Part shown: positions 9,388 to 58,725 of the stretch, in pieces
Position numbering within the stretch: the stretch's first letter is position 1
Layout of the letters: every line of letters begins with the position of its first letter
Assembly (NCBI GenBank): GCA_964349465.1
Contig: CAYGGC010000002.1
Coordinates: 28,841 to 92,840, forward strand
Origin: an uncultured Gammaproteobacteria bacterium
Lineage (GTDB): Bacteria; Patescibacteriota; Patescibacteriia; SBBC01; CAIJZX01
Direction: 5' to 3'
Length of the DNA stretch: 64,000 nucleotides
Notes under the pieces: model-generated
Database searches by the model: none
What the model was told of the DNA's origin: nothing
Seen by the model: the letters and a program-made list of their open reading frames with translations, nothing else
Position numbers and translations under genes: made by a program

Positions 9388-9451
9388 AGTATCGTATGCC
9401 CTGTCAGATCGCCTATAAGCCGAATTCTGTCCGCCTCCGCCCAAGAGTACA

Positions 9452-25369: not shown

Positions 25370-28192
25370 TTATGAACGAGGGCTAACCACGTGCGCAGCC
25401 GCTTGATGCGGATGTGCCTCGGGCGCGTCAGCATGCGGGACCAAGGGTAGAATAAATTGGAAGGTACTCCCCTTTCCTTCACCATCCGACTCGGCCCAAA
25501 TCCGCCCGCCGTGGGCGTCGATAATGGATTTCGCAATAAATAAACCAAGTCCCGATCCATCAGGATGGATTTGGGCGATCCCGCTCCCGCGCACAAACTT
25601 GTTAAACAACTCCGTCGCGTCCTGCGGCTTAATACCAATACCGGTGTCTTTCGCGCGGAAATGAATACGCTCGTCTTCCAGTTCGGCCGTGAGGGTGATT
25701 GAACCTTTATCGGTATATTTGATGGCGTTATCGATCAAATTAAGAATGACATCTTGAATTTTATCGGCGTCAACCATAACTTTCGGCAAGGGTGTTTTTG
25801 GAAGCTTATTGAGAATTTTCAAACCCTTATCGTTCGCCGCTTTCGTTACTTCCTTAATTTCACGCACCACTAAATCTTCAAACTGGACTGGCACTTTTGT
25901 ATATGTGAACTTGCCCGCCTCGATTTTTGAGACGTTTAAGAACTGGTTAATTAAGCGAATCATCCGCTGTGATTCAGCTAATAAATCGGTCAGAATTTTC
26001 AGGTGATCGGGTTTCATCTTCCCGAAATCTCCCTGGGTCATCATCGACAGATAGCCCATAATCCCGGTCATTGGCGTTCGGAGTTGATGGGACGCGATCG
26101 ACACAAATTCTGACTTCGCACGGTCGAGTTCTTGAAGATGCTTGTTCGCAACTTCGAGCTGTCCGTTCGTTTCCTTCAATTGCGAGAAAAGCGTTAAGTT
26201 CCGCGACACAATCCCGAGTTCGTCGGCCATCGATTGCATCGTCGCGATTTCTTGTGGGGTGATGTCGTGGATAGATTTTTGCAAACCGATCTCAATCACC
26301 CCGATGGTCCTTGATTCCGAAATGATCGGTACTAAAACCATCGATTTCAGGCCCATCAGTTTTTGGATACTCGCACATATAATTTTCGGCAGCGGCGGCG
26401 AGAGAACGTCGCTCATCGAGTCCGTGATTTTTATTTCTCCAGTGCGAATAACCTGATGCCCTAAAGAGTTAGAGGCCGGATCCATGATATCGCTGTGGTA
26501 CGTATCAAACCGCAACGGCAATAATCGCATCGCCTTCTTAGTCAGCGGTGTTTCGGTAATTGCGCGCGCCCGAACCGTCCGACCATCTTGGTCGAGGAAG
26601 ACTAGAATCGCGCCCAGATAGCCAAGCTCAGTTGCGACGCTATTGGCGATATTTTGGACGGCTTGGGAGAAATCGAGTGTTCGCGTGACTTCTTTGGTAA
26701 TATTTTGCAGGGTTTGCAACGAGACATTCCGATCTTCGAGCTTCTCGGTCGCTTCCTTTACTTTCACTTTCAAATTTTCACCAAACTCCCGAACTTCTTC
26801 GAAGAGGTTCGCCTTTTGAATCGCTGATCCAATTTGTGGCGACAGCACTTCAATCAAGTTCACGTCATCGTTGGAGAACGTATCCCCAGAGAGTTTAGAC
26901 CCGAGGACAAGTACGGCAATCAAGTGATCTTGCGCGTAGACCGGCGCAATTAAGGCCGCTCCAAGCTTTTCAAATTCTTCTTTCGACGCAAGCAACGGTC
27001 CGCGTAGCTCTTCTTTCGTATCGTCAATTTTCCGCTCAAGCGATTCATAAATGGCCGGATGACGGTGCTCGCGGAGATAATGCACGAGCTGACTCTCGTT
27101 TTGGAGCACCATGTTTGGGTATTTGCCCAAAAGTTCCGGCAAGGCCTCAAACCGATCCGTGCCGCCATGCGAAGTTCGGCGCAGGAGCGTCGCCGCAAAC
27201 TTGATTTTGAGCTCTTGGGTTAGGGTCGTCCGCAGATCGGTAATCAGTTTTGTCTGATCAAGTTCGAAACTGAGGGTTTCGGAAAGTTTGCGGAGAATCG
27301 CTTGATAATCAATCTTTGCCTTGAAAAAGACTTTGTCGGTTGCTCGTGAAAGAAGCCGCTTGAGTGGATCAAGGCCGAAGACGATGAGAGCGGCGACGAG
27401 GAAGGCTATTGAATTTTGACTAACTTGGCTCTTTTCAAAGAAACGCGCGGAGGTAAACGTAATAAAAACGAAAGAGAGTGTGACGAGGGTCAACAGCAAA
27501 CCATAGATTAATGAACGTGTGGCGACTAGACGGATATCTAGTAGCCTATGCCTTACAATTGCGTAACTAACTAATACAACGAGAAAAAGTGTGCCGAGCG
27601 GTCCAAGGGCAACCAGACTACCGATCCCGATTACCGGCAGTAAAATATTAGTAATAATGCCAAAAAGAGCGGTAATTGCGACTCCAGCAAAAACGTACCT
27701 TATCTGTTGCTTAACTAACCCCGAGGAGCTTAAATATTTTCTAATAAAACTGTAAATCGAAAAAATTATTCCTCCAAAGAAATATAGTAAGAAAAAATAG
27801 TACCCTGGCGCATAAGTTAACTTTGCAGGAAAGATTGTGTTATCTACAGATTCAACAAGGTATCCAAAAAAAATAGTTGGCAACAAAACAATAAATCCCA
27901 CTAAAAAAAATACCAATACTGGTTTTCTTGGGTTAACACCAAACGGGAAGAGATAGCTAAAAAAAAGTATAGATGGAATCATTAGTACCGGTCCAAGAAA
28001 AGTCATTTTTGCCCAAAAAAGCGACCTATTCGGATCAAAGTCAACCAAATAGTTAGCAATTGCCCAAATTGCCAAGGATATCGCGAGGGAGAAAAAAGAA
28101 ATATTTATTTTGGATTTGTGATTTCTGTTTAGAATTAAGAATCCTAAAAAAATAATTGAAGCCGAGACAAAAAGAACTGACAATAGGTACAT
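25370..28192 (-). CDS. Sensor histidine kinase with 7TM, GAF, GAF, HisKA and HATPase domains
   Basis: About 220 aa of multi-pass membrane domain, then two GAF-like regions, an H-box (FVSIASHQLRTPMTGIMGY), an N-box (LNLIDNAIKYT) and G-boxes (DTGIGI, GSGLGL). 940 aa. The 5' roughly 500 nt are strongly AT-rich. Confidence 0.8.
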   Translation of the reverse strand: MYLLSVLFVSASIIFLGFLILNRNHKSKINISFFSLAISLAIWAIANYLVDFDPNRSLFWAKMTFLGPVLMIPSILFFSYLFPFGVNPRKPVLVFFLVGFIVLLPTIFFGYLVESVDNTIFPAKLTYAPGYYFFLLYFFGGIIFSIYSFIRKYLSSSGLVKQQIRYVFAGVAITALFGIITNILLPVIGIGSLVALGPLGTLFLVVLVSYAIVRHRLLDIRLVATRSLIYGLLLTLVTLSFVFITFTSARFFEKSQVSQNSIAFLVAALIVFGLDPLKRLLSRATDKVFFKAKIDYQAILRKLSETLSFELDQTKLITDLRTTLTQELKIKFAATLLRRTSHGGTDRFEALPELLGKYPNMVLQNESQLVHYLREHRHPAIYESLERKIDDTKEELRGPLLASKEEFEKLGAALIAPVYAQDHLIAVLVLGSKLSGDTFSNDDVNLIEVLSPQIGSAIQKANLFEEVREFGENLKVKVKEATEKLEDRNVSLQTLQNITKEVTRTLDFSQAVQNIANSVATELGYLGAILVFLDQDGRTVRARAITETPLTKKAMRLLPLRFDTYHSDIMDPASNSLGHQVIRTGEIKITDSMSDVLSPPLPKIICASIQKLMGLKSMVLVPIISESRTIGVIEIGLQKSIHDITPQEIATMQSMADELGIVSRNLTLFSQLKETNGQLEVANKHLQELDRAKSEFVSIASHQLRTPMTGIMGYLSMMTQGDFGKMKPDHLKILTDLLAESQRMIRLINQFLNVSKIEAGKFTYTKVPVQFEDLVVREIKEVTKAANDKGLKILNKLPKTPLPKVMVDADKIQDVILNLIDNAIKYTDKGSITLTAELEDERIHFRAKDTGIGIKPQDATELFNKFVRGSGIAQIHPDGSGLGLFIAKSIIDAHGGRIWAESDGEGKGSTFQFILPLVPHADAPEAHPHQAAAHVVSPRS

Positions 28193-28197
28193 GTAAA

Positions 28198-28503
28198 TTA
28201 TAGTCTGTTAAAAATACGAAAGATGCCAATTATAACGAGTACCAAAAAAATTAAATATACATATGACGGCAGTTTTTTTGCAAAAAAGAAAACATAGATA
28301 TACGGCACTAGGAATACTATGAGAGTTAATCCAGCTCGTACAATAATCTCAAAAGTCGAGACCTTCAGTGCTACCCCCACAACTAGCCAAGCCATTAGAG
28401 CATAGAAAACGGGCCAGGTTCCAAAGTATAGAATTCCAAAAATTCTGCCATCTAGACCATATTTATTGATTTGCTGATTTTTTTTTCGCAAAAAGTCTAA
28501 CAT
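28198..28503 (-). CDS. Small membrane protein, 101 aa, 3 TM helices
   Basis: Hydrophobic ORF lying 2 nt downstream of the acyltransferase stop and 6 nt upstream of the kinase start. About 33% GC. Confidence 0.5.
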   Translation of the reverse strand: MLDFLRKKNQQINKYGLDGRIFGILYFGTWPVFYALMAWLVVGVALKVSTFEIIVRAGLTLIVFLVPYIYVFFFAKKLPSYVYLIFLVLVIIGIFRIFNRL

Positions 28504-28505
28504 GA

Positions 28506-29213
28506 TTAATGCAAAGAATACCTATAATCTTTCCCATGAGGAGAAAGGGAGCCATTAGATAAAAATTTTAATAGTGATCTATTTTTTTCGTACATCTTTT
28601 CTTCAAACTCATTAACATGGATTACATAAGGAGCTGTAATGCCTTGAAATATTTTGGATTTCCCAATGCGTGTAATTGGGATATTAAACTCTTCGAGGTT
28701 CGGTGTTAGCTTATCATCTAAGACGCAGAAAATATTGTTTAAGTGTCTTTCTTTTACCAGCAAATAAATGCCCTTAATTAATACTAGAAGTAGGTGTTTT
28801 CTTCGATAATTTCTTGCGACTATTAATCTAGAAATTTCTGCGACCTGATTTACATCAACTGGTTGAAGACGATAATCAATTTCGAAATTTCTGAGTATGG
28901 GCAATCCATCATCTGAACCGAGAATAAGCCTAGCTGTTGCAGCGAGATCTCCTGAATTATGTCTTACTACAAGATGAATGGAGTGACGATCAAAAATATC
29001 TTGTTCTCTTTTATTTGGGTAATCTCTGTAGTCTAAGTATCTATATTCTTCACAGTAAACTTTGTAACGAATTCTATAAATTTCTTCTAACTCGTCATGC
29101 TCTGAAGTTGTGTAGAAAGTAAAATTTTTATAGACACTTCTTTCTGCTAATCTTAAATTTATCCCCCCAAAGAAAGGACTCTTTACCAATGCTTTCAAAA
29201 AAATGGAGGGCAT
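28506..29213 (-). CDS. GNAT-fold N-acyltransferase of the autoinducer-synthase/N-acyl-amino-acid-synthase/OlsB superfamily
   Basis: RIRYKVYCEEYRYLDYRDYPNKREQDIFDRHSIHLVV matches the LuxI/FeeM block R..VF..E..W.....E.D.FD..S.HLVV. ATARLILGSDDGLPI...AEISRLIV matches the E.SRL.V block. The start at 29213 overlaps the upstream stop as TAATG. Confidence 0.6.
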   Translation of the reverse strand: MPSIFLKALVKSPFFGGINLRLAERSVYKNFTFYTTSEHDELEEIYRIRYKVYCEEYRYLDYRDYPNKREQDIFDRHSIHLVVRHNSGDLAATARLILGSDDGLPILRNFEIDYRLQPVDVNQVAEISRLIVARNYRRKHLLLVLIKGIYLLVKERHLNNIFCVLDDKLTPNLEEFNIPITRIGKSKIFQGITAPYVIHVNEFEEKMYEKNRSLLKFLSNGSLSPHGKDYRYSLH

Positions 29214-29890
29214 TATTTTTTCAAAACAATATAAGTTGTAGTGGCAAACCAAATCACTGAACTAAGAACGCCATAAAGGAAATTTGGAACAAAGTCGGGG
29301 GAAAAAATAGGCCAAATCAGATCGATAAATACCGCGGGCAATCCACCGATGATCACAGACAAAAGGACTAAAAAAACATTTTTGCCGTTTAACCCATCGT
29401 TTCTTTTTGATTGCTTGAATAGCAGTCCTACTGCTAATAAGTAGAGAGAGAGTAAAAGCACATTGTAAAAAGGGAGTAGAGGTCCTGCGACTACCCTCCC
29501 TACGTTTGTTGTAGAGGCAACATAATCCAACTCTATAGTTCGTGTTGTAAGAGCGATTATTGAAAATAGTGCTGCGGGCAAATACATCAATGTTCTATGA
29601 AGTCTATCCAAATGAACTAGCGGAAGTGGAAATACAATGGCCAAATGGACTAGTGACGTAAGTAAAAAAATTCCAAAAACATACACAAAGGAATTGATTA
29701 TGAGAGATGCTTCTAGGCTGTAGGCCAACAAGCCGCTGAAAATCACCCACAACCCCGTACTCAAAGCCAACAACGCCATCACCTTCCGAATTTCACTCTT
29801 CGAGTGCGTCACCCAAAAGAAAATTGCGAGGATTAACTCCCCAATCCCAACAAGGTAGGTGGCTGTAAGTAAAAAGGTTTTCATTTCCAT
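29213..29890 (-). CDS. Stand-alone 7TM membrane protein, paralogue P1 of the kinase sensor domain
   Basis: 225 aa with seven predicted TM helices. It shares MK...ATYLxGxGE..L..FFW.T, FPLP, GGLP and a terminal YIVLKK with P2 and P3. Confidence 0.6.
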   Translation of the reverse strand: MEMKTFLLTATYLVGIGELILAIFFWVTHSKSEIRKVMALLALSTGLWVIFSGLLAYSLEASLIINSFVYVFGIFLLTSLVHLAIVFPLPLVHLDRLHRTLMYLPAALFSIIALTTRTIELDYVASTTNVGRVVAGPLLPFYNVLLLSLYLLAVGLLFKQSKRNDGLNGKNVFLVLLSVIIGGLPAVFIDLIWPIFSPDFVPNFLYGVLSSVIWFATTTYIVLKK

Positions 29891-29891
29891 A

Positions 29892-30566
29892 TTATTTCTT
29901 CAACACAATATAGGAAGTTACGCCAAGCCATACAAGTGTCGCTGAGGTGCCGTACAGAGGATCTTTAGCATACCCCGTAAACAAAGGAATGATCAGGTCA
30001 TTAATGACTCCCGGAAGACCCCCTAGGACAAAGGACAAAGCCACTGGCAGAAGGGTGTGACGATATGTGACATCAGCTTTTCTCAATCGGTATAACAATA
30101 TTCCAATAGCCAGTGTATACAGTGCGATAAGGTATATATTGTAATACTGGAAGAGCGGACCGCCGTGCCAGGCGCCCTGAAATGTTGAGGAGGAAACGTA
30201 ATAATTGAGGACAGTATTCGTTCCAAAAATCTCGAAAGAAAAAATAATGGCCGGGATAAAGAGCAGAAAAATATGAAAGCGATCTATACGAATTATTGGT
30301 AATGGAAAAAGGAGAGAAAAAAGCAAAACGGCGGTTACCATGAAAACTCCAAAGGCGTATGTCAGTCGAGGTAATAGGTTTTGCGCCGTAGCATTTTCAG
30401 TATACGCAGCGCCAACGGTTGAGAGTACCCATGCGCCTGTTACGATCGCAAGGAAACCAAGTATCTTTCGAATAATTTGGTTTCCATTCGTTTTCCAAAA
30501 AAACAATCCGAGGAGAACTTCTCCTAGTCCAATCAGATACGTTGCAATGATTGCGAGTTCTTTCAT
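29892..30566 (-). CDS. Stand-alone 7TM membrane protein, paralogue P2
   Basis: Start MKELAIIATYLIGLGE. It ends SYIVLKK. Its ATG overlaps the P3 stop as ATGA. Confidence 0.6.
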   Translation of the reverse strand: MKELAIIATYLIGLGEVLLGLFFWKTNGNQIIRKILGFLAIVTGAWVLSTVGAAYTENATAQNLLPRLTYAFGVFMVTAVLLFSLLFPLPIIRIDRFHIFLLFIPAIIFSFEIFGTNTVLNYYVSSSTFQGAWHGGPLFQYYNIYLIALYTLAIGILLYRLRKADVTYRHTLLPVALSFVLGGLPGVINDLIIPLFTGYAKDPLYGTSATLVWLGVTSYIVLKK

Positions 30567-31222
30567 TTCTTCACCAAAATATATCCGGTCAAGCACAGCC
30601 AAACCGAGGTAAACAACGATCCAATAAAACCGTATTTCGTGGCCGCATTCAACGGCAAGGCGATATCAAACACCGCCGAAACCACAAGCGAGACCACGAT
30701 ACCGATCGTCACCAGCTGGGTATTTCGACGATGCAACCCGTCGGCCCGCCGCCAGGCGCGCACCAAGTTCACCAACGACCACAGCCAATACAGCCCGAAA
30801 ACGACGATCAGGAGCCAGAACAACTCGCCGGTTGCTGTCGCGTACCCAGGGCCGAAGGCAACAATACTTGAACGAGCGACAAAAATATCGGTCAGCAGGA
30901 GCCCTGGAATGAAGATCGCCGCTGGCCACAGTACCCAGGGAACGAGCTCATGATTTCCCCTCGTCGGTAGAGGGAAGGAAAAGCTAAAGGGTAAGAACAG
31001 CACCGCAGTCATCAATCCCCCGGTCCAAGCCAAGTGCTCGGCGGTGTCGCCACTGATCCACTGTCCAAGATACCCAAGCCCGTTCGCCCCCACATATAGG
31101 GCAACCGCGAAGCAAAACAAGCCATACCACATGGTCGCCTGGTTTTTCTGGTATTTCGTTAGGAACCAAAAGCCCAGCCAAACTTCAGCCAGGGCGATCA
31201 CGATTAACAGCCAGCCAATCAT
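30563..31222 (-). CDS. Stand-alone 7TM membrane protein, paralogue P3 (GC-normal copy)
   Basis: 219 aa. Contains FSFPLP and ends GYILVKK. Its GC is about 55%, unlike P1, P2 and the acyltransferase. Confidence 0.6.
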   Translation of the reverse strand: MIGWLLIVIALAEVWLGFWFLTKYQKNQATMWYGLFCFAVALYVGANGLGYLGQWISGDTAEHLAWTGGLMTAVLFLPFSFSFPLPTRGNHELVPWVLWPAAIFIPGLLLTDIFVARSSIVAFGPGYATATGELFWLLIVVFGLYWLWSLVNLVRAWRRADGLHRRNTQLVTIGIVVSLVVSAVFDIALPLNAATKYGFIGSLFTSVWLCLTGYILVKK

Positions 31223-32085: not shown

Positions 32086-32777
32086 TGTCCGTCCCCCATC
32101 ATTAATCGAACGATCGCGTCGAATGTATTTCTGTACATTGAAACCCGTAGCTCAACACCATCGGACTGATTATACCAGCTCCCAAGTAAAGAATATGCCG
32201 ACCCGTCAGATAGAGTTACCTTACAGACTCGGTCGAATTTAGTGTTAAAGCAGCTAATCGTTCGATTATTCTTGCTACCATAGATTTCGTCAGAAGTCAC
32301 TTGATCTTGTATAAAGGACAGGGGTAAAAAAATTGTAGTGTATGCAGGTGGTGTAGGCACAGTCTCGCCATCTGCTGGTATCTTTTGAACTACAAACACT
32401 GGCGCGTCATTGAGGCCTTCGCATTGCGTAACGCCTTCCATAAGGTAGACAGTGTCCTCATCCAGAGACGAGGGGCAGGCAAAGAAGGAGGTCGAGTATT
32501 TAAAACAAATTGAATCATTCACGCAGTATTTCCGGAAGCCTTTTGTGTCAGGAGTGGAAAAAGAGTTTTCATAAGGGATTTGCTTACCCGACGCTATGAC
32601 GGCTGGACCACGTTCGCGCTGATCAGTTGTGTTGATATTATTGAACGACTCGACATTTTTGTCAGACGATACATTATTAGTTAAATGTGTCTCTTCTTTT
32701 TGGGATAACAAAATTCCACCGGTGATGGTTATCAATAATAGAAGTAATCCGATAGGGATATAAGTGTTTGCTTTCAT
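32082..32777 (-). CDS. Membrane-anchored, Cys-rich secreted protein
   Basis: N-terminal anchor (IPIGLLLLLITITGGILL). Ten Cys in the extracytoplasmic part. No recognised domain. Confidence 0.5.
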   Translation of the reverse strand: MKANTYIPIGLLLLLITITGGILLSQKEETHLTNNVSSDKNVESFNNINTTDQRERGPAVIASGKQIPYENSFSTPDTKGFRKYCVNDSICFKYSTSFFACPSSLDEDTVYLMEGVTQCEGLNDAPVFVVQKIPADGETVPTPPAYTTIFLPLSFIQDQVTSDEIYGSKNNRTISCFNTKFDRVCKVTLSDGSAYSLLGSWYNQSDGVELRVSMYRNTFDAIVRLMMGDGQ

Positions 32778-32802
32778 ACCGAATGAATGAGAATAGAGTT
32801 GT

Positions 32803-32849
32803 TATTGAAAAAATTACCGGGTACAAGAGTATAGTACCCTTGTACCCGG
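32803..32849 (-). terminator. Intrinsic terminator 3' of the CHAP lipoprotein gene
   Basis: On the minus strand, CCGGGTACAAG-ggtactatact-CTTGTACCCGG is an 11-bp stem followed by TAATTTTTTC. Confidence 0.55.
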
Positions 32850-32863
32850 CGACTGTGAAGGCG

Positions 32864-33649
32864 TCAGTATCCGAGGTTCAAAGCCCTGTAATTCGCCAGG
32901 TTGCCCACTCCGGACCCGGACGTCACGGCGATGACATGCATCCCGATTTCCTCGTCGCCGATGAAGTTCGAGTCGACGACAACCACCTTCCGAACCGAGG
33001 ACCCGGCGGCACCTTCCACGATACCGACTACGATGGCCGTGTGGCCGTTGACCGTATTCGTTTCGATGACGTCACCGACACGAATCTGGTAGTACGGTCT
33101 GGCCGAGCCGCCGTAGGCCGGAAGCTTACTATTCCGAACACCCGCGCGGTACAGGATCAGTGCCGCAAAACTCCGGCACTGCCCGCCGTGGGAACGAACC
33201 GTGCCGGTGTTCTGTCCGGAGCGATTCAAGCTCGTCCATGAGTAGACGTCCATGTTCGAGTAATAGCTCGGCCACCCGGTCCAGAGGGAAGCGTTAACCC
33301 CGTACCAGTCATTGCCCTTGATGACATTGTGAGCATTCGGGTCGCTCAGTAGATACGCCCAGTTACTGCGCTGGACCGTTCCATCCGCCGACAACTGCCA
33401 GTACATATAGCCCCAGTTCTGACGGAGCGCGTAGTAGCACTCGTACTGAATGGCGATACGGTTGTCGGGATGCAGTCGACTCGGCTCCACGCCCGGCTTC
33501 CCGATCCGGCCCGACATCGTGTCGGCCGGCGAAATGGTCTGCTCAGTCGTGATCGACGGCTGCACGGGGTTATCCTTCCCGCAGCTCGTCAGCGTCATCG
33601 GCACCAGTGCCAGCGCAAGCGCCAGCCCCACCACCAGAAACTTCTTCAT
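32864..33649 (-). CDS. Lipoprotein with a C-terminal CHAP-like (Cys/His amidase/peptidase) domain, CHAP-1
   Basis: The start at 33649 (MKKFLVVGLALALALVPMTLTSC, lipobox LTSC) has AGGAAG 8 nt upstream. The catalytic-looking region is GGQCRSFAALILYRAG...GDVIE...GHTAIVVG. Confidence 0.6.
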   Translation of the reverse strand: MKKFLVVGLALALALVPMTLTSCGKDNPVQPSITTEQTISPADTMSGRIGKPGVEPSRLHPDNRIAIQYECYYALRQNWGYMYWQLSADGTVQRSNWAYLLSDPNAHNVIKGNDWYGVNASLWTGWPSYYSNMDVYSWTSLNRSGQNTGTVRSHGGQCRSFAALILYRAGVRNSKLPAYGGSARPYYQIRVGDVIETNTVNGHTAIVVGIVEGAAGSSVRKVVVVDSNFIGDEEIGMHVIAVTSGSGVGNLANYRALNLGY

Positions 33650-34068
33650 TGCACACTTCCTGTTCTGCTCCATGACGGAGCTAGAGGGTTTGGTCGCTGA
33701 GGATCACCTCCTCAGGTGTTCTTGATGAGCTACCGTGAAACGGGCGACGAACTGCCGTTCTGGATCACCTCCCTTCCCTCGCACCAGTTGTTGAATTTGA
33801 GTGCTGAGGTTTTTGAATTGTAATGTGCGTCACGAACCATGATGGTCTTTTTTTGGCGTACACAAAGCACGACTATCAACGCCCACTTTCTGCGTTGAGC
33901 CGTCAGTCCTCACCAAGCATGGTGATATGCCACAGCACCAACTACTCACGAGTGGTGCTGGGCAAGCAAAAACCAGCGGCCCAACTCTCGACACTTTGTC
34001 AGGTTAACAACGTATGAACGTTGTCAGCCCGAGCGAAGTCGAGGGCCAAGCCACTGGTTCGTATGTTC

Positions 34069-34096
34069 ATTGTACTTGACGGAATAGCTGCGTCAA
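34069..34096 (-). promoter_or_regulatory. Promoter plus conserved leader, copy A (drives the long 5'UTR of CHAP-1)
   Basis: On the minus strand, TTGACG, a 16-nt spacer, then TACAAT. The transcript begins with GAACATACGAACCAGTGGCTTGG, which is conserved with copies B and C. Confidence 0.5.
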
Positions 34097-34109
34097 GTGG
34101 AAAACTTGT

Positions 34110-34730
34110 TTATTGTACTACTGCTGATTTGACCACCTTATCTAAAATAGCCATCACATCGCCTCTTCCCTGATTGTATTCAATTTCTACCGTTGGGCGA
34201 TGATCAGAATACCAATAGGTCATCGAGTAACCCACATTGGTCGTCACTTCGATATAGCGCCACTGCTGTTCATGGATTTGCTCGCTACCTTCACGAACAA
34301 TACGTTGACCTGCGGGAAGAGTGGCTTTTATCGACTGAACGAGTTCGACCGCTGAATCAAATTCGTGCTGCATGAACAGTAAACTCGGACTGTCTGGGTA
34401 GCTCACCGGAAATGACCAAGACACCGCGCCTGCCCCTTCGGACTTCGTCATATTTTTTGGGATGGCAAAAGTAAATCCACTATACGGGAAATCTTGCGTG
34501 TCGACCGCCTGAGCAACGACTGTATCCCACGCTCGACTTACATCTGTAGATACATTACCGTTTGCATTGCTGTTTTTTTGTTTCGTGTTCGTCACTGGAG
34601 TATAAAAATTTTTCAATCCAAACCAAACGCCACCTCCGATGACAATAAGCGCGACGATGACCATGAAATTTTTCATACGTAATTGACCAATGATACAAAT
34701 AAAAAAGAAAATAGGGAACAGAGAAATCAT
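34110..34730 (-). CDS. Membrane-anchored secreted protein
   Basis: The start at 34730 has GAGGGGAG 7 nt upstream. An internal MKNFMVIVALIVIGGG start is also possible. No recognised domain. Confidence 0.5.
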   Translation of the reverse strand: MISLFPIFFFICIIGQLRMKNFMVIVALIVIGGGVWFGLKNFYTPVTNTKQKNSNANGNVSTDVSRAWDTVVAQAVDTQDFPYSGFTFAIPKNMTKSEGAGAVSWSFPVSYPDSPSLLFMQHEFDSAVELVQSIKATLPAGQRIVREGSEQIHEQQWRYIEVTTNVGYSMTYWYSDHRPTVEIEYNQGRGDVMAILDKVVKSAVVQ

Positions 34731-34761
34731 ACTCTGCTCCCCTCTTTATGAGAAGGCGCCA

Positions 34762-35658
34762 TCAGTACCAGATACCCGCGCCAGAGACACAACGCCACTT
34801 CGTACCGTTGATCTGGGCGTTGGTCACATAGTGCCGGCCGATCGTCTCATACGCCAGGTAATTGGAATCGCCCACTGTCATCCCGCCACTATCCTTCGTG
34901 ACGCAGACACCAATATGCTGATTCCCGGTCCCGTTGTTGTAGTAGACTATGTCACCTACCTGAGCGCTCAGGGCTGACTGATCGCTGGTAGACGTGTGAG
35001 CCGCCCAGCTCCAGTTTAGTTTGTAACTGCCCCCGGTCGCTCGGTAGAGCAACATAGCCACAAACGCGACGCACTGCGTCCCGCGACCATAACCACCTCT
35101 CATCGCGTAACTATCGGCACTGAGATAGTTAACCCAGTACTCGACCGTGTTCTGCGGCGATGCCATCAGCCCCGGCTTGTCGATACGGCAACAGTTGCAG
35201 ACCGGCGGAATGTCATCCGAGACGCAGGTCTGGAAGGTGTTGAGCGCATAGCGGAGGCCGTTTGCATTCGCATCCGCCGCCGTCGACAACCAGTTCCAGT
35301 TCGACTTCGGACCTGAAGGGCCGACGGTATCGTCCGGCTTAGTCAACCAGGAACGGTTCAGCGAGTACCAGAACTCGTTCCGCACAAAGTACCGTCTCGA
35401 GCCGATCGAGTACGGCTGCATCGACGACTTCCGCAGGGCAGCTGCGGTCGACTCCGCACGAGTGGTGGTGTACGTCAGCGGCGTGAGACCCCGGTAGATC
35501 GACTTGACCGCACCCCAGCTCGTCCGGAGAACTTCATGCTGCAGCGTGGCATTGGCAGCGTAGTCTGGAGTCTGGTCAGTTCCAGCAACGGCTGGTTTCA
35601 CCCACACTGACATAGTTGCCAGCACGATGAGCGACAGGACCATCATCAGCTTTTTCAT
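34762..35658 (-). CDS. Secreted CHAP-like domain protein, CHAP-2 (paralogue of CHAP-1)
   Basis: Signal peptide MKKLMMVLSLIVLATMSVWVKPAVAG. The Cys/His region is GTQCVAFVAMLLYRATG...GDIVYY...QHIGVCV. Confidence 0.6.
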   Translation of the reverse strand: MKKLMMVLSLIVLATMSVWVKPAVAGTDQTPDYAANATLQHEVLRTSWGAVKSIYRGLTPLTYTTTRAESTAAALRKSSMQPYSIGSRRYFVRNEFWYSLNRSWLTKPDDTVGPSGPKSNWNWLSTAADANANGLRYALNTFQTCVSDDIPPVCNCCRIDKPGLMASPQNTVEYWVNYLSADSYAMRGGYGRGTQCVAFVAMLLYRATGGSYKLNWSWAAHTSTSDQSALSAQVGDIVYYNNGTGNQHIGVCVTKDSGGMTVGDSNYLAYETIGRHYVTNAQINGTKWRCVSGAGIWY

Positions 35659-35950
35659 TGCCGATTTCCATTTCTGCTCGAAGAACGAGCAAAGAGTTTT
35701 TGAGATGAGACAATCTCATCTCGATGTGACCATCACGTCTATTCCCACGGTACTACAACCTCGAACGCCTCCTTTTTGGATTGGAATGAACAACCCGAAC
35801 CAGGTTTGTCGTAACTCAAGCACATAAAACAAGCGGTTCAAGCCGCGGTTTTCTCACCTGTGTGGTTTACGAAAAACCAGCAGCTCGACGCTGAACTGTT
35901 CTCCCCTGTTTCGGAGAGAGTTCAGAACCAAGCCACTGATTCGTACATGT

Positions 35951-35978
35951 ATTTTACTCCGGTAAAAAGTAATGTCAA
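35951..35978 (-). promoter_or_regulatory. Promoter plus conserved leader, copy B (about 285-nt 5'UTR of CHAP-2)
   Basis: On the minus strand, TTGACA, a 16-nt spacer, then TAAAAT. The transcript begins with ACATGTACGAATCAGTGGCTTGG. Confidence 0.5.
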
Positions 35979-36318
35979 GTGCATAAAATCGAGCTTGTCC
36001 CGAGATCCTGAGTTTGTCGAAGGGCGAGGGATCAAGTGGATAAGTACATACCTACCCTCTCCCCATCGCCCGATCCACTGATCCCGATAGACAAAGTATT
36101 GGTGGTTCCCGATACTTAGTAAAAAGTAGCGGATTCCTGGGACCAATGTGCTGGTACGACGGAGAGGGGGCAGCCCCGCACCGTCCGACCTCCCCTTTGA
36201 CCCTCCCCCTACGAGGAGGGATCGGAATGGTCGAGCCAATTTCTTGGCGGACGGTGCGGCGGACTATTCGTTACCGAGATGCTTCGCGCCTCTCTCCGGC
36301 GCTCAGCATGGAAAACGA

Positions 36319-36732
36319 CTAGTCGTTTTCCACCTCATCAACGTCAACATCCTCTTTCACGAGTTTCGTGTTCACTGAATCCCCGCCCTTCGCCTTGGTA
36401 GTTCGATGGCCAAGCATAATCATATTATCAGCGACAATTTCCTTGACACTCCGTTTTCCACCATCGCGGGTCACATACTTACGCGTCGCCAAACGACCCT
36501 CAACATAGATCTTGCTTCCCTTTTTGACGTACTGACGAACAATATCGCCAAGCTTGCCCCAAGCAATGACGTCATGGAAGTCGACGGCCTCTCGCTTCGC
36601 TTTCGTTTTCGCGTCTTGCCAGGCGTAATTCGTCGCCAAGCTAAACCGAGTAATCTGCTGACCTGATGGCAGCGTTTTCCCTTCTGGATCGCGAACCATG
36701 TTCCCGATCAACGTGACCTTGTTGAGGTCCAT
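36319..36732 (-). CDS. ssb: Single-stranded DNA-binding protein
   Basis: OB-fold N-terminus (MDLNKVTLIGNMVRDPE...TRFSLATN...HDVIAWGKL). The acidic tail ends EDVDVDEVEND rather than the canonical DDDIPF. The stop codon sits in the loop of a perfect 10-bp palindrome. Confidence 0.8.
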   Translation of the reverse strand: MDLNKVTLIGNMVRDPEGKTLPSGQQITRFSLATNYAWQDAKTKAKREAVDFHDVIAWGKLGDIVRQYVKKGSKIYVEGRLATRKYVTRDGGKRSVKEIVADNMIMLGHRTTKAKGGDSVNTKLVKEDVDVDEVEND

Positions 36733-36894
36733 ACAAAAATCCTTTCTTGCCCCGCGCCGATACGGCGCGGTGGCTTATCCAGCACTTCAATCCTGAGCTA
36801 GCCGAAGGATTGTGGTGCTGGGCGCCAAGCCCGCGATCTGTCTTCGTCCCCGCCCACCAATCGCGCGGAGATGAGGACGGATTTTTTGCCTCGC

Positions 36895-37374
36895 TCACTG
36901 ATGACTGCCGTGTTCGTACACTACCCACCGAAAAGAAAGATGCCCACCGAGAAGTCCGATCAAAGGTGCAACAAGAGAAATTATTCCCAGTTGAAAACTT
37001 TTTGCATGCTGTATATATTTTGCTGAGTTTCCAGTAGTCATCATGACGAGCGGCGGGTTGAAAATTAATATGGCACTTGAAGTAAGGGCGAATAGTATGG
37101 CAATTGTGTATATTTTCAACTTCATTTTTGGATGACCGCTTGAGAGAAGACCCGCGAGTATTGCAACGAGAATCATAGTTGCACACACTGACAGGTAGCG
37201 TAAATAGAATTCACCGTTGGCTGAAGAAAGTTTTGTATGTGCGCAAACACTTTCAATAGAAGGTGTTTTACTATCGCAATAGACAGCTCCTTGGCGAATA
37301 AATCCCGGGGAAAAGTATGTAATAAATCCCAGCAGGATCAGAAGGCCAAATAAATGTTTTCTTGGTGTGGTCAT
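36895..37374 (-). CDS. Multi-pass membrane protein (hypothetical)
   Basis: Hydrophobic ORF starting MTTPRKHLFGLLILLGFI in an AT-rich region. An overlapping ORF in another frame (36641..37186) was rejected. Confidence 0.4.
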   Translation of the reverse strand: MTTPRKHLFGLLILLGFITYFSPGFIRQGAVYCDSKTPSIESVCAHTKLSSANGEFYLRYLSVCATMILVAILAGLLSSGHPKMKLKIYTIAILFALTSSAILIFNPPLVMMTTGNSAKYIQHAKSFQLGIISLVAPLIGLLGGHLSFRWVVYEHGSHQ

Positions 37375-37445
37375 AGAGTATATTGACATACTATCAGACG
37401 TTCACGCTTGATCCTGTCAAACAAGTGCGTCTGAAATCGAAACGA

Positions 37446-37841
37446 CTACGCTACAAGATTGCAAATGATAAATGGGAAATCAGGTTCCCAAACTTGAACT
37501 ACTGTAAAGGAAATGCCTGCAACGATAATTACTATCAGAAGTATCAGTCGTAAATATTTTGGCAAAGGCTTTCGCAAGCCACTTGCCCAGACCAGGAGAG
37601 AAATAAGAATCAGTAAAAAAGTACTAGACACAAACACGCTCATAAAATTTGCCAGGCCTGGCGCAGTAATGGTTTTGCAGATCTTTTGAATAGCTACCGG
37701 ATCGCCATTTGTCACTGCAAGACTTTGTTGAATTTCTGGGTGTTGTTGTGCATACCCATCGTATGAAAATGCTGAAAGCAATAGCCCCAGCGTGCTCATT
37801 GTGAGTATTGGGAGAACAATAGCATGAAGTTTTTTTATCAT
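37446..37841 (-). CDS. Membrane protein (hypothetical), 131 aa
   Basis: An N-terminal signal/anchor and two further TM segments. AT-rich. Confidence 0.45.
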   Translation of the reverse strand: MIKKLHAIVLPILTMSTLGLLLSAFSYDGYAQQHPEIQQSLAVTNGDPVAIQKICKTITAPGLANFMSVFVSSTFLLILISLLVWASGLRKPLPKYLRLILLIVIIVAGISFTVVQVWEPDFPFIICNLVA

Positions 37842-37866
37842 ATGATTAACATGTAGTATAGCAGAA

Positions 37867-37897
37867 AAAGTCTGGAGGAAACGACTAGCATAGTCGT
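37867..37897 (-). terminator. Intrinsic terminator 3' of the secreted-protein gene
   Basis: On the minus strand, GGAGGAAACGACTA-TGC-TAGTCGTTTCCTCC is a 14-bp stem followed by AGACTTTTTCT. Confidence 0.55.
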
Positions 37898-37908
37898 TTC
37901 CTCCATTA

Positions 37909-38424
37909 CTAGTAGGAGTACGTCGTCCAGAGCCAGAAGTACCGTGAAAATTCCCAGTCCGTCAGATAGCCGTACTGAATGCGCAGAGTCTTCGGGATAA
38001 TCAACCGGCAGTCATCCCACCCGTTACCAAGATTCGTGCGGGCCAGAATCCAGTTGTTCAGACCGCCTTCGCAACAGGACGTCGGGATGCCTGCGGACCG
38101 AGTAATCCCGTAGGTGGAATGGGGGATCCGGAACACGATCGTGAAATGCGGCCCCTTCCAGTCCCACTGCCAGTCAGTCCGATAGGCCTGGTAGCCCGTG
38201 TTCTGAACCGCACTCATCTCCGCTCCCGGCCGTACGATCGCGCGACCAGTCTCACTCGAGATGGTCTGAGTCGGAACCGTCTCCGCGGGGGTAGGCACCG
38301 GCTGTGCAAACCTCGTCTTGAGCGCGCCCCAGGTCGTCTTCGTGACGGTCGGTTCCTGCGCGAACGACGGGAACGTGAACAACGTGGCGACAAGCAAAAC
38401 AAGCAACGTGACCAGCCGCTTCAT
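37909..38424 (-). CDS. Secreted protein, 171 aa
   Basis: Signal peptide MKRLVTLLVLLVATLFTFPSFAQE. AAAGGAG lies 5 nt upstream of the ATG. The N-terminal block TTWGALKTRFAQP resembles one in CHAP-2. Confidence 0.5.
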   Translation of the reverse strand: MKRLVTLLVLLVATLFTFPSFAQEPTVTKTTWGALKTRFAQPVPTPAETVPTQTISSETGRAIVRPGAEMSAVQNTGYQAYRTDWQWDWKGPHFTIVFRIPHSTYGITRSAGIPTSCCEGGLNNWILARTNLGNGWDDCRLIIPKTLRIQYGYLTDWEFSRYFWLWTTYSY

Positions 38425-38603
38425 GGCGCTACTCCTTTTGGTAACCCTGAATCAGGTTCAGGGTCTGTAAGGTGCAACAAGCACACGTCGATGTGACGTC
38501 GCTTGCTTCGACATACGCGATCTGCGCATGTCAAAAAATCGGCGACTCGACGGCCAACGGGTTTTCCACCGTCAGCGACCAAGCCACCGATTTCTATGTC
38601 TCT

Positions 38604-38631
38604 AGTTTACTCTTCTGAAACCAACTGTCAA
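38604..38631 (-). promoter_or_regulatory. Promoter plus conserved leader, copy C (upstream of the 37909..38424 gene)
   Basis: On the minus strand, TTGACA, a 16-nt spacer, then TAAACT. The transcript begins with ACATAGAAATCGGTGGCTTGG. Confidence 0.5.
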
Positions 38632-39057
38632 GATCTTCATTTGCGCTTTGACCTAAAGAGCTTATCGTTTACGAAAACTATGTTCAAGATACTCCTTGGG
38701 CTATGTCCAAGTTATATCCAAACCATGAAAACCATCCAAAAAAACCAAAAAGCAAAGATGCTAGCTTGAATGAATTTTCCCGCTTCTCTTTTTACCAATG
38801 TACTACGCACGATGATAGCGACGGTTATGAGGCTCACCATGATCAACAAAAGATCTGTCAAAAGCCCTAAGGAATTTCGTTAATATGAGGACCGTCCGAT
38901 CAAGATAAAAATATTCTCGGCCAAAATCGTTCCGCCAATCGAAATACTTAATACTAATGAAACGAGACGGCCGACTAGTGTCAACATATTATTAACACGG
39001 ATGTTTTTAAAAATTTTCACATTATTCGACCATTGTTGATTACTCATAGTTTATTTC

Positions 39058-39402
39058 TTACTTGATCTCTTCAATATTCAATAATTGGATGACAATTCCC
39101 CAATCGCCCCCAATAACATCTTGGATTTGATACTCAATCACAACGCGCTGACCATCATGCTGCCGAGCGCTTGGGAGATCGGCAAAACGAAATTTTTGCT
39201 TCAATGGATGTGCTAGGCTACGATCGGTTTGAAACCCCCATGCTGGGACAGAGTTGACCGTAATAACCTGGATGCGACCAATAGCCTTGTGGGTCACGGC
39301 GCCTGATTGTAGCGACTGGGTGTAGGCAACGATTGCAAAAACGCCGTAGAGTATTATTAGGCCAACCGTGGTAACAAGAATATATAGGTATCGTTTTGTC
39401 AT
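39058..39402 (-). CDS. Small membrane-anchored protein, 114 aa
   Basis: N-terminal TM helix (YLYILVTTVGLIILYGVFAIVAY). No recognised domain. Confidence 0.45.
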   Translation of the reverse strand: MTKRYLYILVTTVGLIILYGVFAIVAYTQSLQSGAVTHKAIGRIQVITVNSVPAWGFQTDRSLAHPLKQKFRFADLPSARQHDGQRVVIEYQIQDVIGGDWGIVIQLLNIEEIK

Positions 39403-39412
39403 GGGTAGATTT

Positions 39413-39718
39413 TTACATCAGGTTTCCCGAAAACCCCAGGAGTAAGATCCAAACAATTGGAAACAGCACAAATAACGCCCATCCCAGGATCATTCCTAGC
39501 CCAAAGTTTCGGTTTTTCTTCCGTAACCAAATCGCAACTGCGAGTAGCGTGATACAAAAAATCCATTGCAAAAGAAAACTTGTAGCTGGTGAAGGCTCAA
39601 CAGTTACCATCAATATAAACCCGATCGCGCCGAGCAATGGAATAAGCAAGACACCGCGGTAAAAGTTTCGTTCTTTTAGGATGTGAGCTGGCTGGTGTGT
39701 CGGTACGCCATTGATCAT
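39413..39718 (-). CDS. Small membrane protein (2-3 TM helices)
   Basis: Hydrophobic. The start is uncertain (39718 or 39757). Confidence 0.4.
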   Translation of the reverse strand: MINGVPTHQPAHILKERNFYRGVLLIPLLGAIGFILMVTVEPSPATSFLLQWIFCITLLAVAIWLRKKNRNFGLGMILGWALFVLFPIVWILLLGFSGNLM

Positions 39719-39734: not shown

Positions 39735-40262
39735 TTAATTATTACTTTTTTGTGCAATACAGTTCGTGATAAAAAATGTTCGGGGAATGCCTTTCATGTC
39801 AGGAGCATTCTCGTTGAATTGCCGGAGATGGGTAATTTTTAAGGAAGACAGATTCTCTTGCAATGCTTCAGCTGTATATCGTGAAATCAACGGACGCTCG
39901 AATGACGGTTCTGGGTCTTGAAAAAAAGTTTGAAGAGCGAATATTCCGTGTGGATCAAGGTGTTGAAGAGCAGTGGGAAAGAAACTCTTTTTCACCCATT
40001 CGCCAGAAAGAAATTGGATGAGATTTCGAGAAAAAATAATGTCGTAGCTTTCCTGCGTCGGCCAATTTGCAACGAACGAAACTACATCTTGCTTGATCCA
40101 TCGTAGACCGGAAAGTTCCTGCGGCGCATCTTTCAGATCAACAGCTGTCACGACCGCGCCACGTTCCACCGCTTGGCGCGCAAACCAACCATTTCCAGCC
40201 CCAAGATCGAGGACGCGGCTACCTGGTTGGACGTAGTGCAATGTTGTTTCAGCGAAGGTCAT
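39735..40262 (-). CDS. Class I SAM-dependent methyltransferase, small-molecule/RNA type
   Basis: Motif I is VLDLGAGNGWFARQAV. Length 175 aa. There are no DNA-MTase motifs. Confidence 0.6.
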   Translation of the reverse strand: MTFAETTLHYVQPGSRVLDLGAGNGWFARQAVERGAVVTAVDLKDAPQELSGLRWIKQDVVSFVANWPTQESYDIIFSRNLIQFLSGEWVKKSFFPTALQHLDPHGIFALQTFFQDPEPSFERPLISRYTAEALQENLSSLKITHLRQFNENAPDMKGIPRTFFITNCIAQKSNN

Positions 40263-40781: not shown

Positions 40782-41452
40782 GATGGTCTCCTGTTGCGAA
40801 GGGACTGCAGTGAACAGCGCGGCCGAAACGTTGGTTCTTCCTTTCCTGTAAAGGGCAATCTTCTGGAGCGGAATCATTCGTTCATCCTCTCCCATCTCCC
40901 CACCGGCGCGGTATAGACAAATTTTGGTGGCTTGGCAATTGGTGATGGAAGGTTCGCCGCGCCGATGGAGAGGTGGGAAAGAACGTTGTTCTACGGAATC
41001 ATCACCTCCCAGCGCCCAGGCGCCACCCCGAGTAGACGACGACCTCGCGGAGGTGAAGCGAGGTCGACAACGGGACGATGAAAATGAGTGGTGAGCTTGG
41101 CCCAGAATCGCGGCCAGCCGGAAAAGCGAAAGATACTCGCCGGACGGCGCTTTTTCTTGATGACGAATTGGTCAATCGATCGATTCATAGACACGATAGT
41201 GAAGTTATCCACGTTGATGGCGACGGCGCTCGAGTGCGACGGCGCAACCTGTCGGGCGTCGATTCGTTGCGTAATACTGGAGTGAACGATGAGATTCATA
41301 CCTGGGCGATGTGTGTTTTAGCGCCGTCGCTATTTTTTGAGACGGCTCATTTATAAATAAATTTTAGCGCGATGATTTTTTTTCGTCAAGATTTTGTACA
41401 TAAAAAAATCAGGGAATGTGTTCCCTGATAACTATCCTACCCAACAATGCTC

Positions 41453-58654: not shown

Positions 58655-58725
58655 ACATTCCTGATATTACCTAATAAGGACGTTGTACTACATGAACCGG
58701 CCCTTACAGAAAAGTGTTACAAAAG

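Follow-up and report, generated by a model that had tools for sequence, protein, structure and literature searches.

The 64,000-nucleotide window analysed here (positions 28,841 to 92,840 of contig CAYGGC010000002.1, from an uncultured bacterium of the Patescibacteriota lineage) contains three copies, A, B and C, of an element in which a promoter is fused to a long RNA hairpin, each on the minus strand and ahead of a gene for a secreted protein. Coordinates below are positions in this window. The sequence conserved behind each promoter is the 5' arm of the hairpin, the hairpin runs into a stretch of U residues, and at least 26 copies are found in related genomes and metagenomes. The reading that we favour, tentatively, is that the hairpin serves as a promoter-proximal terminator gate, which the downstream genes would pass with the help of a trans-acting factor or by leaky read-through.

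An earlier note on this DNA had placed three promoters on the minus strand in this region, followed by a common leader start and by 5' untranslated regions (5'UTRs) of roughly 410, 285 and 170 nt. The three sites lie where that note put them and have the hexamers that it gave (Table 1); they are three of the top four minus-strand promoter-like matches in 32500–39500 (10–11 of 12 positions). With the start set at 7 nt past the −10 hexamer, the predicted start sites are ~38597 (A), ~35944 (B) and ~34062 (C), and the 5'UTRs are ~173 nt, ~286 nt and 389–413 nt long (the last depending on the choice of ATG), as had been claimed. The layout TTGACN-16-TANNNT recurs in nearly all 26 copies, including three found by covariance model alone; the spacer is 18 nt in one. 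The promoter of copy C begins 13 nt past the stop codon of an upstream 206-aa gene. In the promoter scan of 32500–39500, none of the three leaders had a promoter-like site between its hairpin and the coding sequence.

The copies also resemble one another outside the hexamers. Their common segment reads AGAAATCGGTGGCTTGG in A, ACGAATCAGTGGCTTGG in B and ACGAACCAGTGGCTTGG in C; the 17-mer ACGAAYCRGTGGCTTGG is exact in B and C and has two mismatches in A. The shorter word GTGGCTTGG occurs four times in the window, where 0.48 occurrences are expected, the fourth being at 40927 on the plus strand within a different element (X2, described below). All three copies form a long hairpin, H1, whose 5' arm is the common leader start AAYCRGUGGCUUGG. 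Its 5' and 3' arms are AAAUCGGUGGCUUGGU and GUCGAGUCGCCGAUUUUUU in A, GAAUCAGUGGCUUGGU and GUCGAGCUGCUGGUUUUU in B, and GAACCAGUGGCUUGGC and GUUGGGCCGCUGGUUUUU in C, the 3' arm running directly into a T-run in each case. The minimum free energies are −35.6 kcal/mol for A (z −5.2 versus shuffles), −39.4 kcal/mol for B (about −39 to −40; z −6.2) and −53.4 kcal/mol for C (z −6.9), and the covariance model of the element, R1, scores them at 58.4, 61 and 62.7 bits. In the 64-kb window, R1 has exactly three matches of 58–63 bits, all in one island and one orientation; the next match, 21 bits at 58721, is a plain bidirectional terminator.

Across the 26 copies, the helix starts 8–13 nt past the −10 hexamer, i.e. 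~1–6 nt past the predicted start site, and A/G-U pairs lengthen it as far as the 5' terminus. UUUUU or a U-rich tract directly follows the stem base, ...GCCGCCGG, in most copies; a few have weaker U-runs. The hairpins of other copies resemble those of the window. Stem and U-run together have the make-up of an intrinsic (Rho-independent) terminator, and the element looks like one placed at about +3 to +70/+105. The gene-end terminators of the window, one behind each of the three hydrolase or secreted-protein genes (Table 1), share this style of long stem and T-run. The earlier note, in proposing a common cis-regulatory RNA, pointed the right way, as the conserved transcribed segment is real and is under selection at the RNA level; it missed the terminator-like hairpin and U-run at the 5' end.

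The fold and covariation analysis that the earlier note had called for showed that the hairpin is conserved and that changes in its 3' arm are compensatory or compatible with wobble pairing. In an alignment of 24 copies (A2), the basal helix of 16 bp joins columns 9–24 to columns 99–114. Paired residues occupy 91.6% of its cells, versus 31–51% when the partners are slid by 1–3 columns, and the covariation score was matched in 0 of 500 shuffles. At pair 14:109, 12 copies have G-C and 10 have A-U, a clean compensatory change; at the other helix pairs, the 3' side varies among partners that still pair (C or U opposite G, G or A opposite U). About 120 of 382 helix cells (~31%) are G.U, with U21.G102 present in 23 of the 24 copies. 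Because G.U cells become A.C mismatches on the opposite strand, that strand would fold less well, and reverse-strand matches to R1 score ~20 bits, versus ~50 bits for the sense strand. The pairing points to a structure of sense RNA or of a sense single strand rather than a duplex-DNA palindrome, and indicates that selection on the conserved segment is at the RNA level. The 5' core GTGGCTTG is nearly invariant, also in copies that homology or the model alone brought up. At its apex the hairpin is hypervariable, with about 10–75 nt and no conserved sequence, and therefore provides no conserved ligand pocket; a riboswitch was rejected, as only the basal helix is conserved.

The search for further copies proposed in the earlier note has extended the family to metagenome-assembled genomes (MAGs) of Patescibacteria (Ca. 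Kerfeldbacteria and others) and to metagenomes; the window itself has only three. Homologs of the 298-aa CHAP protein encoded behind copy B are rare (9 among 5.8 billion clusters). Contigs with such homologs that carry the element are L001–L004, L005, L008, L009, L011 and L146, the copy in L011 being truncated at its 5' end and a variant without CTTGG. L145, where a 50%-identical CHAP homolog lies in a different genomic context, has no copy. A pattern scan over one genome per species gave true copies only in four MAGs. L014, a 'Patescibacteria group bacterium' MAG, has two copies; in the Ca. Kerfeldbacteria MAG of L015/L016, the two 8-kb stretches examined of the 857-kb contig JACPSJ010000001.1 have three, all in the island. 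The element is also carried by L012 (JANLXT010000186.1), a 1.5-kb contig labelled FCPU426, and by L022 (CAYLHT010000010.1), labelled Gammaproteobacteria. Since L022 has the ssb gene and gene order of the same island, its label is probably a binning error; the ssb sequences of L022 and L012 are ~85% identical (by eye) to those of the Patescibacteria MAGs, and the label of L012, too, probably reflects mis-binning.

A looser pattern scan of metagenomes, with 120 stretches examined and mostly chance matches among them, added L030, L035, L037, L053, L054 (two copies), L064/L087, L074/L140 (two each) and L106 (two); the copy totals are a lower bound. The covariance model added copies outside the pattern at L064:3955–4026 (CGAUGGCUUGG, with a G to A change in the 5' arm and a compensating U in the 3' arm), at L022:7168–7234 (variant CGGUGACUUGG) and in L035; in such variants the pairing is preserved. 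The ssb-linked copy of L064 is an ortholog of window copy A, with the same promoter flank and the same apex. Searches of the literature and of accessions for a metatranscriptome origin of the Logan contigs gave nothing, and where a contig stops at the element (L008, L006), a break in the assembly at the repeat is the simpler explanation. IMG/VR contains no true copy: its two pattern matches do not fit the covariance model, and a phage origin was rejected on this ground.

In every long locus, two or three element-led genes lie in an island of ~5 kb that adjoins ssb, and the element is always in sense orientation, directly ahead of a gene. The element-led products include CHAP/NlpC-P60 proteins, Peptidase_M23 (three), Peptidase_C39-like (two) and an M10 matrixin-like protease, several secreted proteins without a family, and SSB itself in L015 and L064. 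The secretome regulon suggested earlier is supported in so far as most of these genes encode signal peptides, chiefly on peptidases; what is found is a local island of two to three copies, not a genome-wide regulon, and ssb, led by the element in some genomes, is not a gene for a secreted protein. Within the island, element-led signal-peptide genes rich in G and C are each followed by AT-rich genes for small membrane proteins. Beyond it are two or three stand-alone HisKA_7TM proteins and a FeeM-like N-acyl amino acid synthase; the synteny with this sensor cluster is also seen in L005, L011, L016 and L074, and Pfam scans of the window proteins revealed no response regulator near it. In most loci the upstream co-directional gene ends at most ~35 nt from the −35 hexamer or overlaps the promoter, and has no terminator of its own. 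Where the gap is this short, the hairpin is the first terminator met by upstream transcription. The gap is 100–150 nt in a few loci (L074, L015), and window copy B lies behind ssb and another conserved hairpin, X1.

If the hairpin is a terminator gate, most transcripts would by default end there as RNAs of 65–105 nt. A trans-acting factor, perhaps NusG-family or another antiterminator, would read the conserved 5' arm, either in the nascent RNA or in non-template DNA as at an ops site, and would let RNA polymerase past the hairpin; the hydrolase genes of the island would be switched on together once it acts. The same hairpin would end the transcript of the upstream gene, and the read-through mRNA would keep a base-paired 5' end, which should slow 5'-end-dependent decay. 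As only 1–6 nt precede the stem, no antiterminator can form in cis. Together with the lack of a second promoter, this implies that the downstream genes would be expressed only by read-through.

A lead on the possible factor comes from RfaH. The E. coli ops element is CGGTAGCGTG; its hairpin is formed or contacted by C3, G4, G5, T6 and G8, its pause dinucleotide is T11-G12, and the substitution A7T abolishes RfaH recruitment (PMC5995543). Plasmid RfaH paralogs have ops-like sites (PMC11880322). The segment CGGTGGCTTG of our element matches ops at 7–8 of 10 positions, including C3, G4, G5, T6, G8 and T11-G12, and both are short conserved leader elements just past a promoter, with terminator-like signals behind them and surface or secreted functions downstream. 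Unlike ops, the segment is embedded in a long RNA hairpin, and RfaH is proteobacterial. No NusG paralog was seen in the scans of the 64-kb window, no genome-wide search having been made. An ops element of the RfaH type (GGCGGTAGnnTG in the non-template strand of the leader) was not found, and we treat the resemblance as a lead only.

Several observations weigh against a regulated gate. Anatomy, conservation, pairing, strand specificity and gene association are observed, but start site, termination, control of read-through, and the existence and identity of the factor are all deduced from sequence. Pfam scans of 29 proteins in the 64-kb window yielded no antiterminator, no extra NusG/KOW, ANTAR or CAT/PRD protein and no response regulator. 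At the position of ops A7, which matters for RfaH, the element has G, and G1 and G2 are absent. The nine copies that were obtained without use of the motif pattern have 26.2 bits in the 5' arm and 22.2 bits in the 3' arm; with the 3' arm nearly as conserved, the case for single-strand recognition of just the 5' arm is weakened. Most copies were retrieved with a pattern that requires the motif, which inflates its apparent invariance. The ssb-linked copy of Kerfeldbacteria is a short hairpin of 8 bp with a poor U-run, which is more in keeping with a 5' hairpin than with a strong terminator. Finally, an alternative hairpin that could act as antiterminator, GAACC-loop(GGUGGCUU)-GGUUC, which would display the motif, was rejected: it can form in about two-thirds of the copies, 68% of its cells are paired and 123 of 500 shuffles are as good.

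Other forms of control in cis were also discarded. An attenuator with a cis antiterminator (T-box, RAT, ANTAR or leader-peptide) would need an exclusive upstream structure or a peptide, and neither is supported. Open reading frames that start from TTG in the motif ('MVLKF...') occur in five leaders. Frameshifts separate close copies, and the TTACAA and GGAGGTGAT blocks are read in different frames; since the open reading frames of the motif are not conserved in frame, there is no conserved leader peptide. Long-range pairing of the 5' arm with a distal 'GUCCAC' is good in L037 and L054, with only CAC conserved overall.

A more far-reaching proposal, which we consider quite unlikely, is that the element forms the cis-acting half of an antitermination switch, undescribed so far and specific to Patescibacteria, in which an ops-like or 5'-arm site fused to a terminator gate would let a dedicated factor release a set of peptidoglycan-degrading enzymes, and sometimes SSB, in one step. 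This factor might be a NusG-family or other RNA-polymerase- or RNA-binding protein, and might be controlled by the adjacent module of 7TM receptor, FeeM-type synthase and GAF-histidine kinase. Such a switch, if it exists, would amount to a host-attack or DNA-acquisition programme of episymbionts.

The terminator gate has to be weighed against a simpler, constitutive arrangement, which we rate as somewhat unlikely, in which the hairpin is a terminator or insulator for the upstream gene and a 5' stem-loop on the next mRNA, with fixed read-through and no regulator. The stem-loop and a strong Shine-Dalgarno-like GGAGGUGAU box would then guard the mRNA from 5'-end-dependent decay. The geometry fits a 5' stabiliser, whose stem lies within about 4 nt of the 5' end, if the start is 7 nt past the −10: the helix begins 1–6 nt past the predicted start in all copies, with A/G-U pairs reaching the 5' end, and GGAGGUGAU stands without a start codon in many leaders. 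This arrangement would also account for upstream genes that mostly stop within ~35 nt of the −35 without a terminator, for the recurrence of start-less GGAGGTGAT boxes in the leaders of many genomes (only three in the window), for a short ssb-linked variant that keeps the hairpin with hardly any U-run, and for the absence of a regulator from the window scans. However, structure would suffice for such a role, yet GTGGCTTG is nearly invariant where the proteins share at most 30–40% identity. A stabiliser does not need the conserved T-run after the GC-rich stem base, and a strong terminator behind a near-consensus promoter would be a wasteful design.

Promoter, hairpin and U-run could also constitute a small-RNA gene of 65–105 nt with a common 5' arm, acting in trans as a protein decoy or by base pairing, with the downstream genes merely syntenic or reached by incidental read-through. 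We regard this as unlikely. It is in keeping with a strong promoter and a terminator that bracket a compact, very stable hairpin, with several copies per genome that combine a conserved part and a variable apex, and with an inverted 11-nt GGTGGCTTGGC in X2 (40925–40935), from which a minus-strand RNA would be complementary to the 5' arm. But the downstream genes have no other promoter-like site, the leader blocks behind the hairpin are conserved across distant copies as would be expected of an uninterrupted 5'UTR, the helix hides the conserved sequence instead of exposing it like a seed, and the element is always in sense orientation directly ahead of a gene.

A very unlikely explanation is a duplex-DNA operator, i.e. 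11–14 conserved bp at +8 to +20 recognised by a repressor or activator, the hairpin being secondary. The position of the segment is fixed relative to the promoter, and GGTGGCTTGGC also occurs inverted upstream of another gene in three genomes. In addition, the classical DnaA box TTATCCACA has the 8-mer TTATCCAC as its core, and this 8-mer is strongly enriched at the promoters: 11 of 26 copies have it at the −35 hexamer or just ahead of it, versus 20 occurrences in total in 154 kb of source sequences. Either orientation is used (GTGGATAA in L074). Promoters with exact or near TTATCCAC are those of L001, L009, L014, L022, L030, L035, L053, L054, L064 and L074; L009, the ortholog of copy C, has exact TTATCCAC at the place of the one-mismatch TTTTCCAC in the window. 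The enrichment suggests a DNA-binding regulator, perhaps DnaA, perhaps not, and the same protein might read both these boxes and the operator. The boxes at the −35 look like a DNA-level regulatory site separate from the hairpin. The conserved motif itself was rejected as a DnaA box, as it agrees with the relaxed consensus at only 5 of 9 positions. A plain double-stranded operator, which the earlier note had offered as an alternative, fails to explain why pairing is strand-specific, why the complementary 3' arm 32–65 nt away co-varies (G-C in 12, A-U in 10), why ~31% of pairs are wobble pairs on one strand only, and why a T-run follows.

That the element is a functionless leftover of recent duplication or gene conversion, or a mobile repeat (a miniature inverted-repeat transposable element (MITE) or attC-like), is hardly credible. 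In its favour are the distant paralogy of the downstream genes, several blocks common to the leaders and the clustering of the copies. Against it, the coding regions are only 22–30% identical locally, MAGs of Ca. Kerfeldbacteria and other Patescibacteria retain the element ahead of non-homologous M23, M10, C39-like and ssb genes, two to three copies per genome hold the same place and orientation, unlike a MITE, and IMG/VR has none. Recent segmental duplication, named earlier as a possible explanation, is excluded because the coding regions are far diverged: the 269-aa and 298-aa CHAP proteins share 30% identity over 92 aa (BLASTP 2e-08), and the 171-aa protein has 22% identity with the CHAP proteins over its N-terminus and shares only an N-terminal motif with them. 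Because of the 31% wobble pairs, the arms make poor DNA inverted repeats, and they do not match the attC core sites. A MITE or integron attC-type repeat was also rejected from the distribution, with three copies in 64 kb in one island and one orientation, and likewise in other genomes.

Several known systems resemble the element in part. In lambdoid phages the late promoter PR' is followed by the terminator tR', which is read through with the antiterminator Q. There, as here, a strong promoter has an intrinsic terminator close behind it and yields a short RNA by default (predicted in our case), the genes behind include cell-wall lytic enzymes, and the conserved initially transcribed region is a candidate site for factor loading. 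Unlike PR'-tR'-Q, the island has no identified Q-like protein and no −10-like pause element in the conserved segment, and it has two to three separate gates in a cellular context instead of one gate of a long operon, with none in viral contigs. Protein-mediated antitermination in leaders is known for HutP, LicT/SacY (RAT), GlpP and CspA-family proteins, with the 'cold box' of cspA. As in these leaders, a leader terminator has conserved sequence overlapping its 5' half, and several genes share the leader start and long 5'UTRs; in contrast to them, 1–6 nt before the stem leave no room for an antiterminator, and there are no repeated UAG-type triplets. Stem-loops at the 5' end and stabilising Shine-Dalgarno sequences (STAB-SD), as in the leaders of B. 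subtilis aprE and B. thuringiensis cryIIIA, stabilise mRNA. The stem-loop a few nt from the 5' end of a secreted-enzyme mRNA and the GGAGGUGAU far from any start codon are similar, whereas aprE and cryIIIA are defined by structure and position, with no conserved arm sequence and no U-run behind. The ydaO (c-di-AMP) riboswitch precedes cell-wall hydrolase genes in Actinobacteria, and is likewise an RNA that acts in cis within long leaders, ahead of genes for NlpC/P60-type and related secreted hydrolases; our element differs in its hypervariable apex without a conserved pocket and in the lack of any Rfam match even at E ≤ 10.

Scans with Rfam 15 gave only RNase P and one tRNA in the window at gathering thresholds, only chance-level matches elsewhere at E ≤ 10 for 33500–38800, and only a tRNA at E ≤ 1 for 52 kb of related loci. 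A literature search found nothing on such an element in Patescibacteria. Leader terminators or attenuators whose arm is sequence-specific are a known class; the particulars appear undescribed, namely an element that is promoter-fused, lacks a cis antiterminator, is rich in wobble pairs and is restricted to a hydrolase-ssb island in bacteria of the candidate phyla radiation (CPR). Very little is known of gene regulation in Patescibacteria (CPR), which are mostly uncultured and have tiny genomes with few recognisable regulators or regulatory RNAs. The element is a compact, recognisable control module with a covariance model, and precedes peptidases plausibly used on the cell's own wall or that of a host. 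If it is a regulated gate, it would mark a co-controlled 'lytic enzyme' island and give a handle on the missing regulator and signal; if it is only a terminator and 5' stabiliser, it would still be a new, sequence-defined insulating and boosting design in a minimal genome.

Table 1. Features of the promoter-hairpin element and of its surroundings in the 64-kb window (X copies of other loci in their own coordinates).
Feature	Position	Strand	Details
Copy A promoter	TTGACA 38631–38626; TAAACT 38609–38604	−	16-nt spacer; 10/12 consensus match
Copy B promoter	TTGACA 35978–35973; TAAAAT 35956–35951	−	16-nt spacer; 11/12 consensus match
Copy C promoter	TTGACG 34096–34091; TACAAT 34074–34069	−	16-nt spacer
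Copy A hairpin H1 and U-run	38595–38533	−	5' arm 38593–38578, 3' arm 38551–38536, U-run 38538–38533
Copy B hairpin H1 and U-run	35944–35872	−	5' arm 35942–35927, 3' arm 35889–35874, U-run 35876–35872
Copy C hairpin H1 and U-run	34062–33968	−	5' arm 34060–34045, 3' arm 33985–33970, U-run 33972–33968
Motif CGGTGGCTTGG	38589–38579	−	inside copy A 5' arm
Motif CAGTGGCTTGG	35938–35928 (copy B), 34056–34046 (copy C)	−	inside 5' arms
DnaA-box-like TTATGCAC	35986–35979	−	abuts copy B promoter; one mismatch to TTATCCAC
DnaA-box-like TTTTCCAC	34104–34097	−	abuts copy C promoter; one mismatch to TTATCCAC
Exact TTATCCAC	36043–36036	−	near copy B promoter
Rest of leader A	38532–38425	−	second hairpin, CCTTACAG (38472–38465), real Shine-Dalgarno AAAGGAG
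Rest of leader B	35871–35659	−	hairpin 2 and UUGUUUUAUGUG (35848–35821), CATTCCAAT (35788–35780), AAGGAGG (35774–35768)
Rest of leader C	33967–33674	−	CACCATGCTTGGTGAGG hairpin, hairpin 2 and GUGCUUUGUGUAC (33870–33858), CATTACAAT (33825–33817)
GGAGGTGAT boxes in leader C	33772–33764, 33711–33703	−	no start codon behind either
Third GGAGGTGAT	41001–41009	−	adjoins X2
171-aa secreted protein	37909–38424	−	signal peptide, TWGALK motif, no Pfam family; terminator 37905–37873
298-aa secreted CHAP/NlpC-P60 protein	34762–35658	−	Pfam CHAP 5.6e-06, NLPC_P60 7.1e-05; terminator 34742–34713
269-aa secreted or lipoprotein CHAP-like protein	32864–33673	−	terminator 32850–32816
Sensor/signal cluster	25370–31222	−	three HisKA_7TM, FeeM-like GNAT, 940-aa 7TM-GAF-GAF-HisKA-HATPase kinase
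X copies, window	36030–36190 (X1), 40860–40990 (X2)	+	conserved hairpin
X copies, other loci	L001 1525–1680; L015 2860–3010, 5790–5920; L064 4640–4800; L074 11615–11750		

Between hairpin and gene, the leaders extend for a further 100–350 nt. Their alignment shows ordered blocks that are common to distant copies and are separated by variable hairpins. A short GC hairpin (hairpin 2) followed by YUGUUUYGUGU comes first, then GYWCYUUACAAY (core CYUUACAAY), then AAGGAGGUGAUMC / AAGGAGGUGAU without a start codon behind it, and last YUGUYCAC, followed by a final hairpin with the real Shine-Dalgarno sequence. In leader B, too, a final hairpin lies ahead of the start codon. The word GGAGGTGAT is perfectly complementary to the 3' end that bacterial 16S rRNA usually has. 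With only three occurrences in the 64-kb window (0.34 expected), two of them in leader C, it is not the routine ribosome-binding site of this genome. It recurs far from any start codon in the leaders of L001, L005, L008, L011, L014, L037 and L106. In this lineage, GGAGGUGAUC is probably a perfect anti-Shine-Dalgarno complement. None of the further blocks occurs in the ssb-linked copies; promoter and hairpin thus form a module that can be separated from what follows in the leader. The true start of the 269-aa protein is probably MKKFLVV at 33649.

Many element-led secreted proteins have a motif (T/S)WGA(I/V/L)K..(Y/F)R about 10–50 residues past the signal peptide (~10 in the 171-aa protein), with any catalytic domain behind it. 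In the window it is carried by the 171-aa and 298-aa proteins, and elsewhere by proteins of L012, L014, L022 and L074. It may be a sorting or anchoring tag.

The GC content of the window alternates gene by gene between 28000 and 38500. The secreted hydrolase genes have 58–60% GC, the small membrane-protein genes that follow them 40–44%, and the stretch 28198–29252 has 33–34%. Each hydrolase gene is bracketed by the element ahead and its own terminator behind. A small class-I S-adenosylmethionine (SAM) methyltransferase (Methyltransf_23/11/25; 39735–40262, minus strand) is syntenic with the island and is also found in L005 (2019–2603); in L106, a SAM methyltransferase stands directly ahead of both element copies.

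A second conserved non-coding family, 'X', was also noticed. It is a hairpin of ~100–130 nt closed by CTCTCCCC.../...GGAGAGGG and best read on the plus strand, with the invariant core ATAGACAAA-N2-3-TTGGTGG and no Rfam match. X1 lies between ssb and the promoter of copy B, and X2 upstream of a conserved protein of 150–190 aa without a Pfam family. The GGTGGCTTGGC of X2 is on the plus strand in the apical part of its hairpin, and is also present in L015 (~5853–5863) and L074 (~11681–11691); in these three genomes, a minus-strand transcript of X2 is a perfect complement of the element's 5' arm over 10–11 nt. The paralogous X1 copies lack GGTGGCTTGGC. The match could be due to chance, to a shared DNA site or to an antisense partner. 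A trans-acting antisense RNA from X2 is doubtful, given that X1 lacks the stretch and the match may belong to the core of X itself.

Elsewhere in the window, a bacterial class A RNase P RNA was identified at 9400–9884 on the minus strand (193.7 bits), with insertions of ~100 nt and ~60 nt relative to the model. It adjoins a gene for a 180-aa protein of RNase H / RVT_3 type (9936–10478, minus strand).

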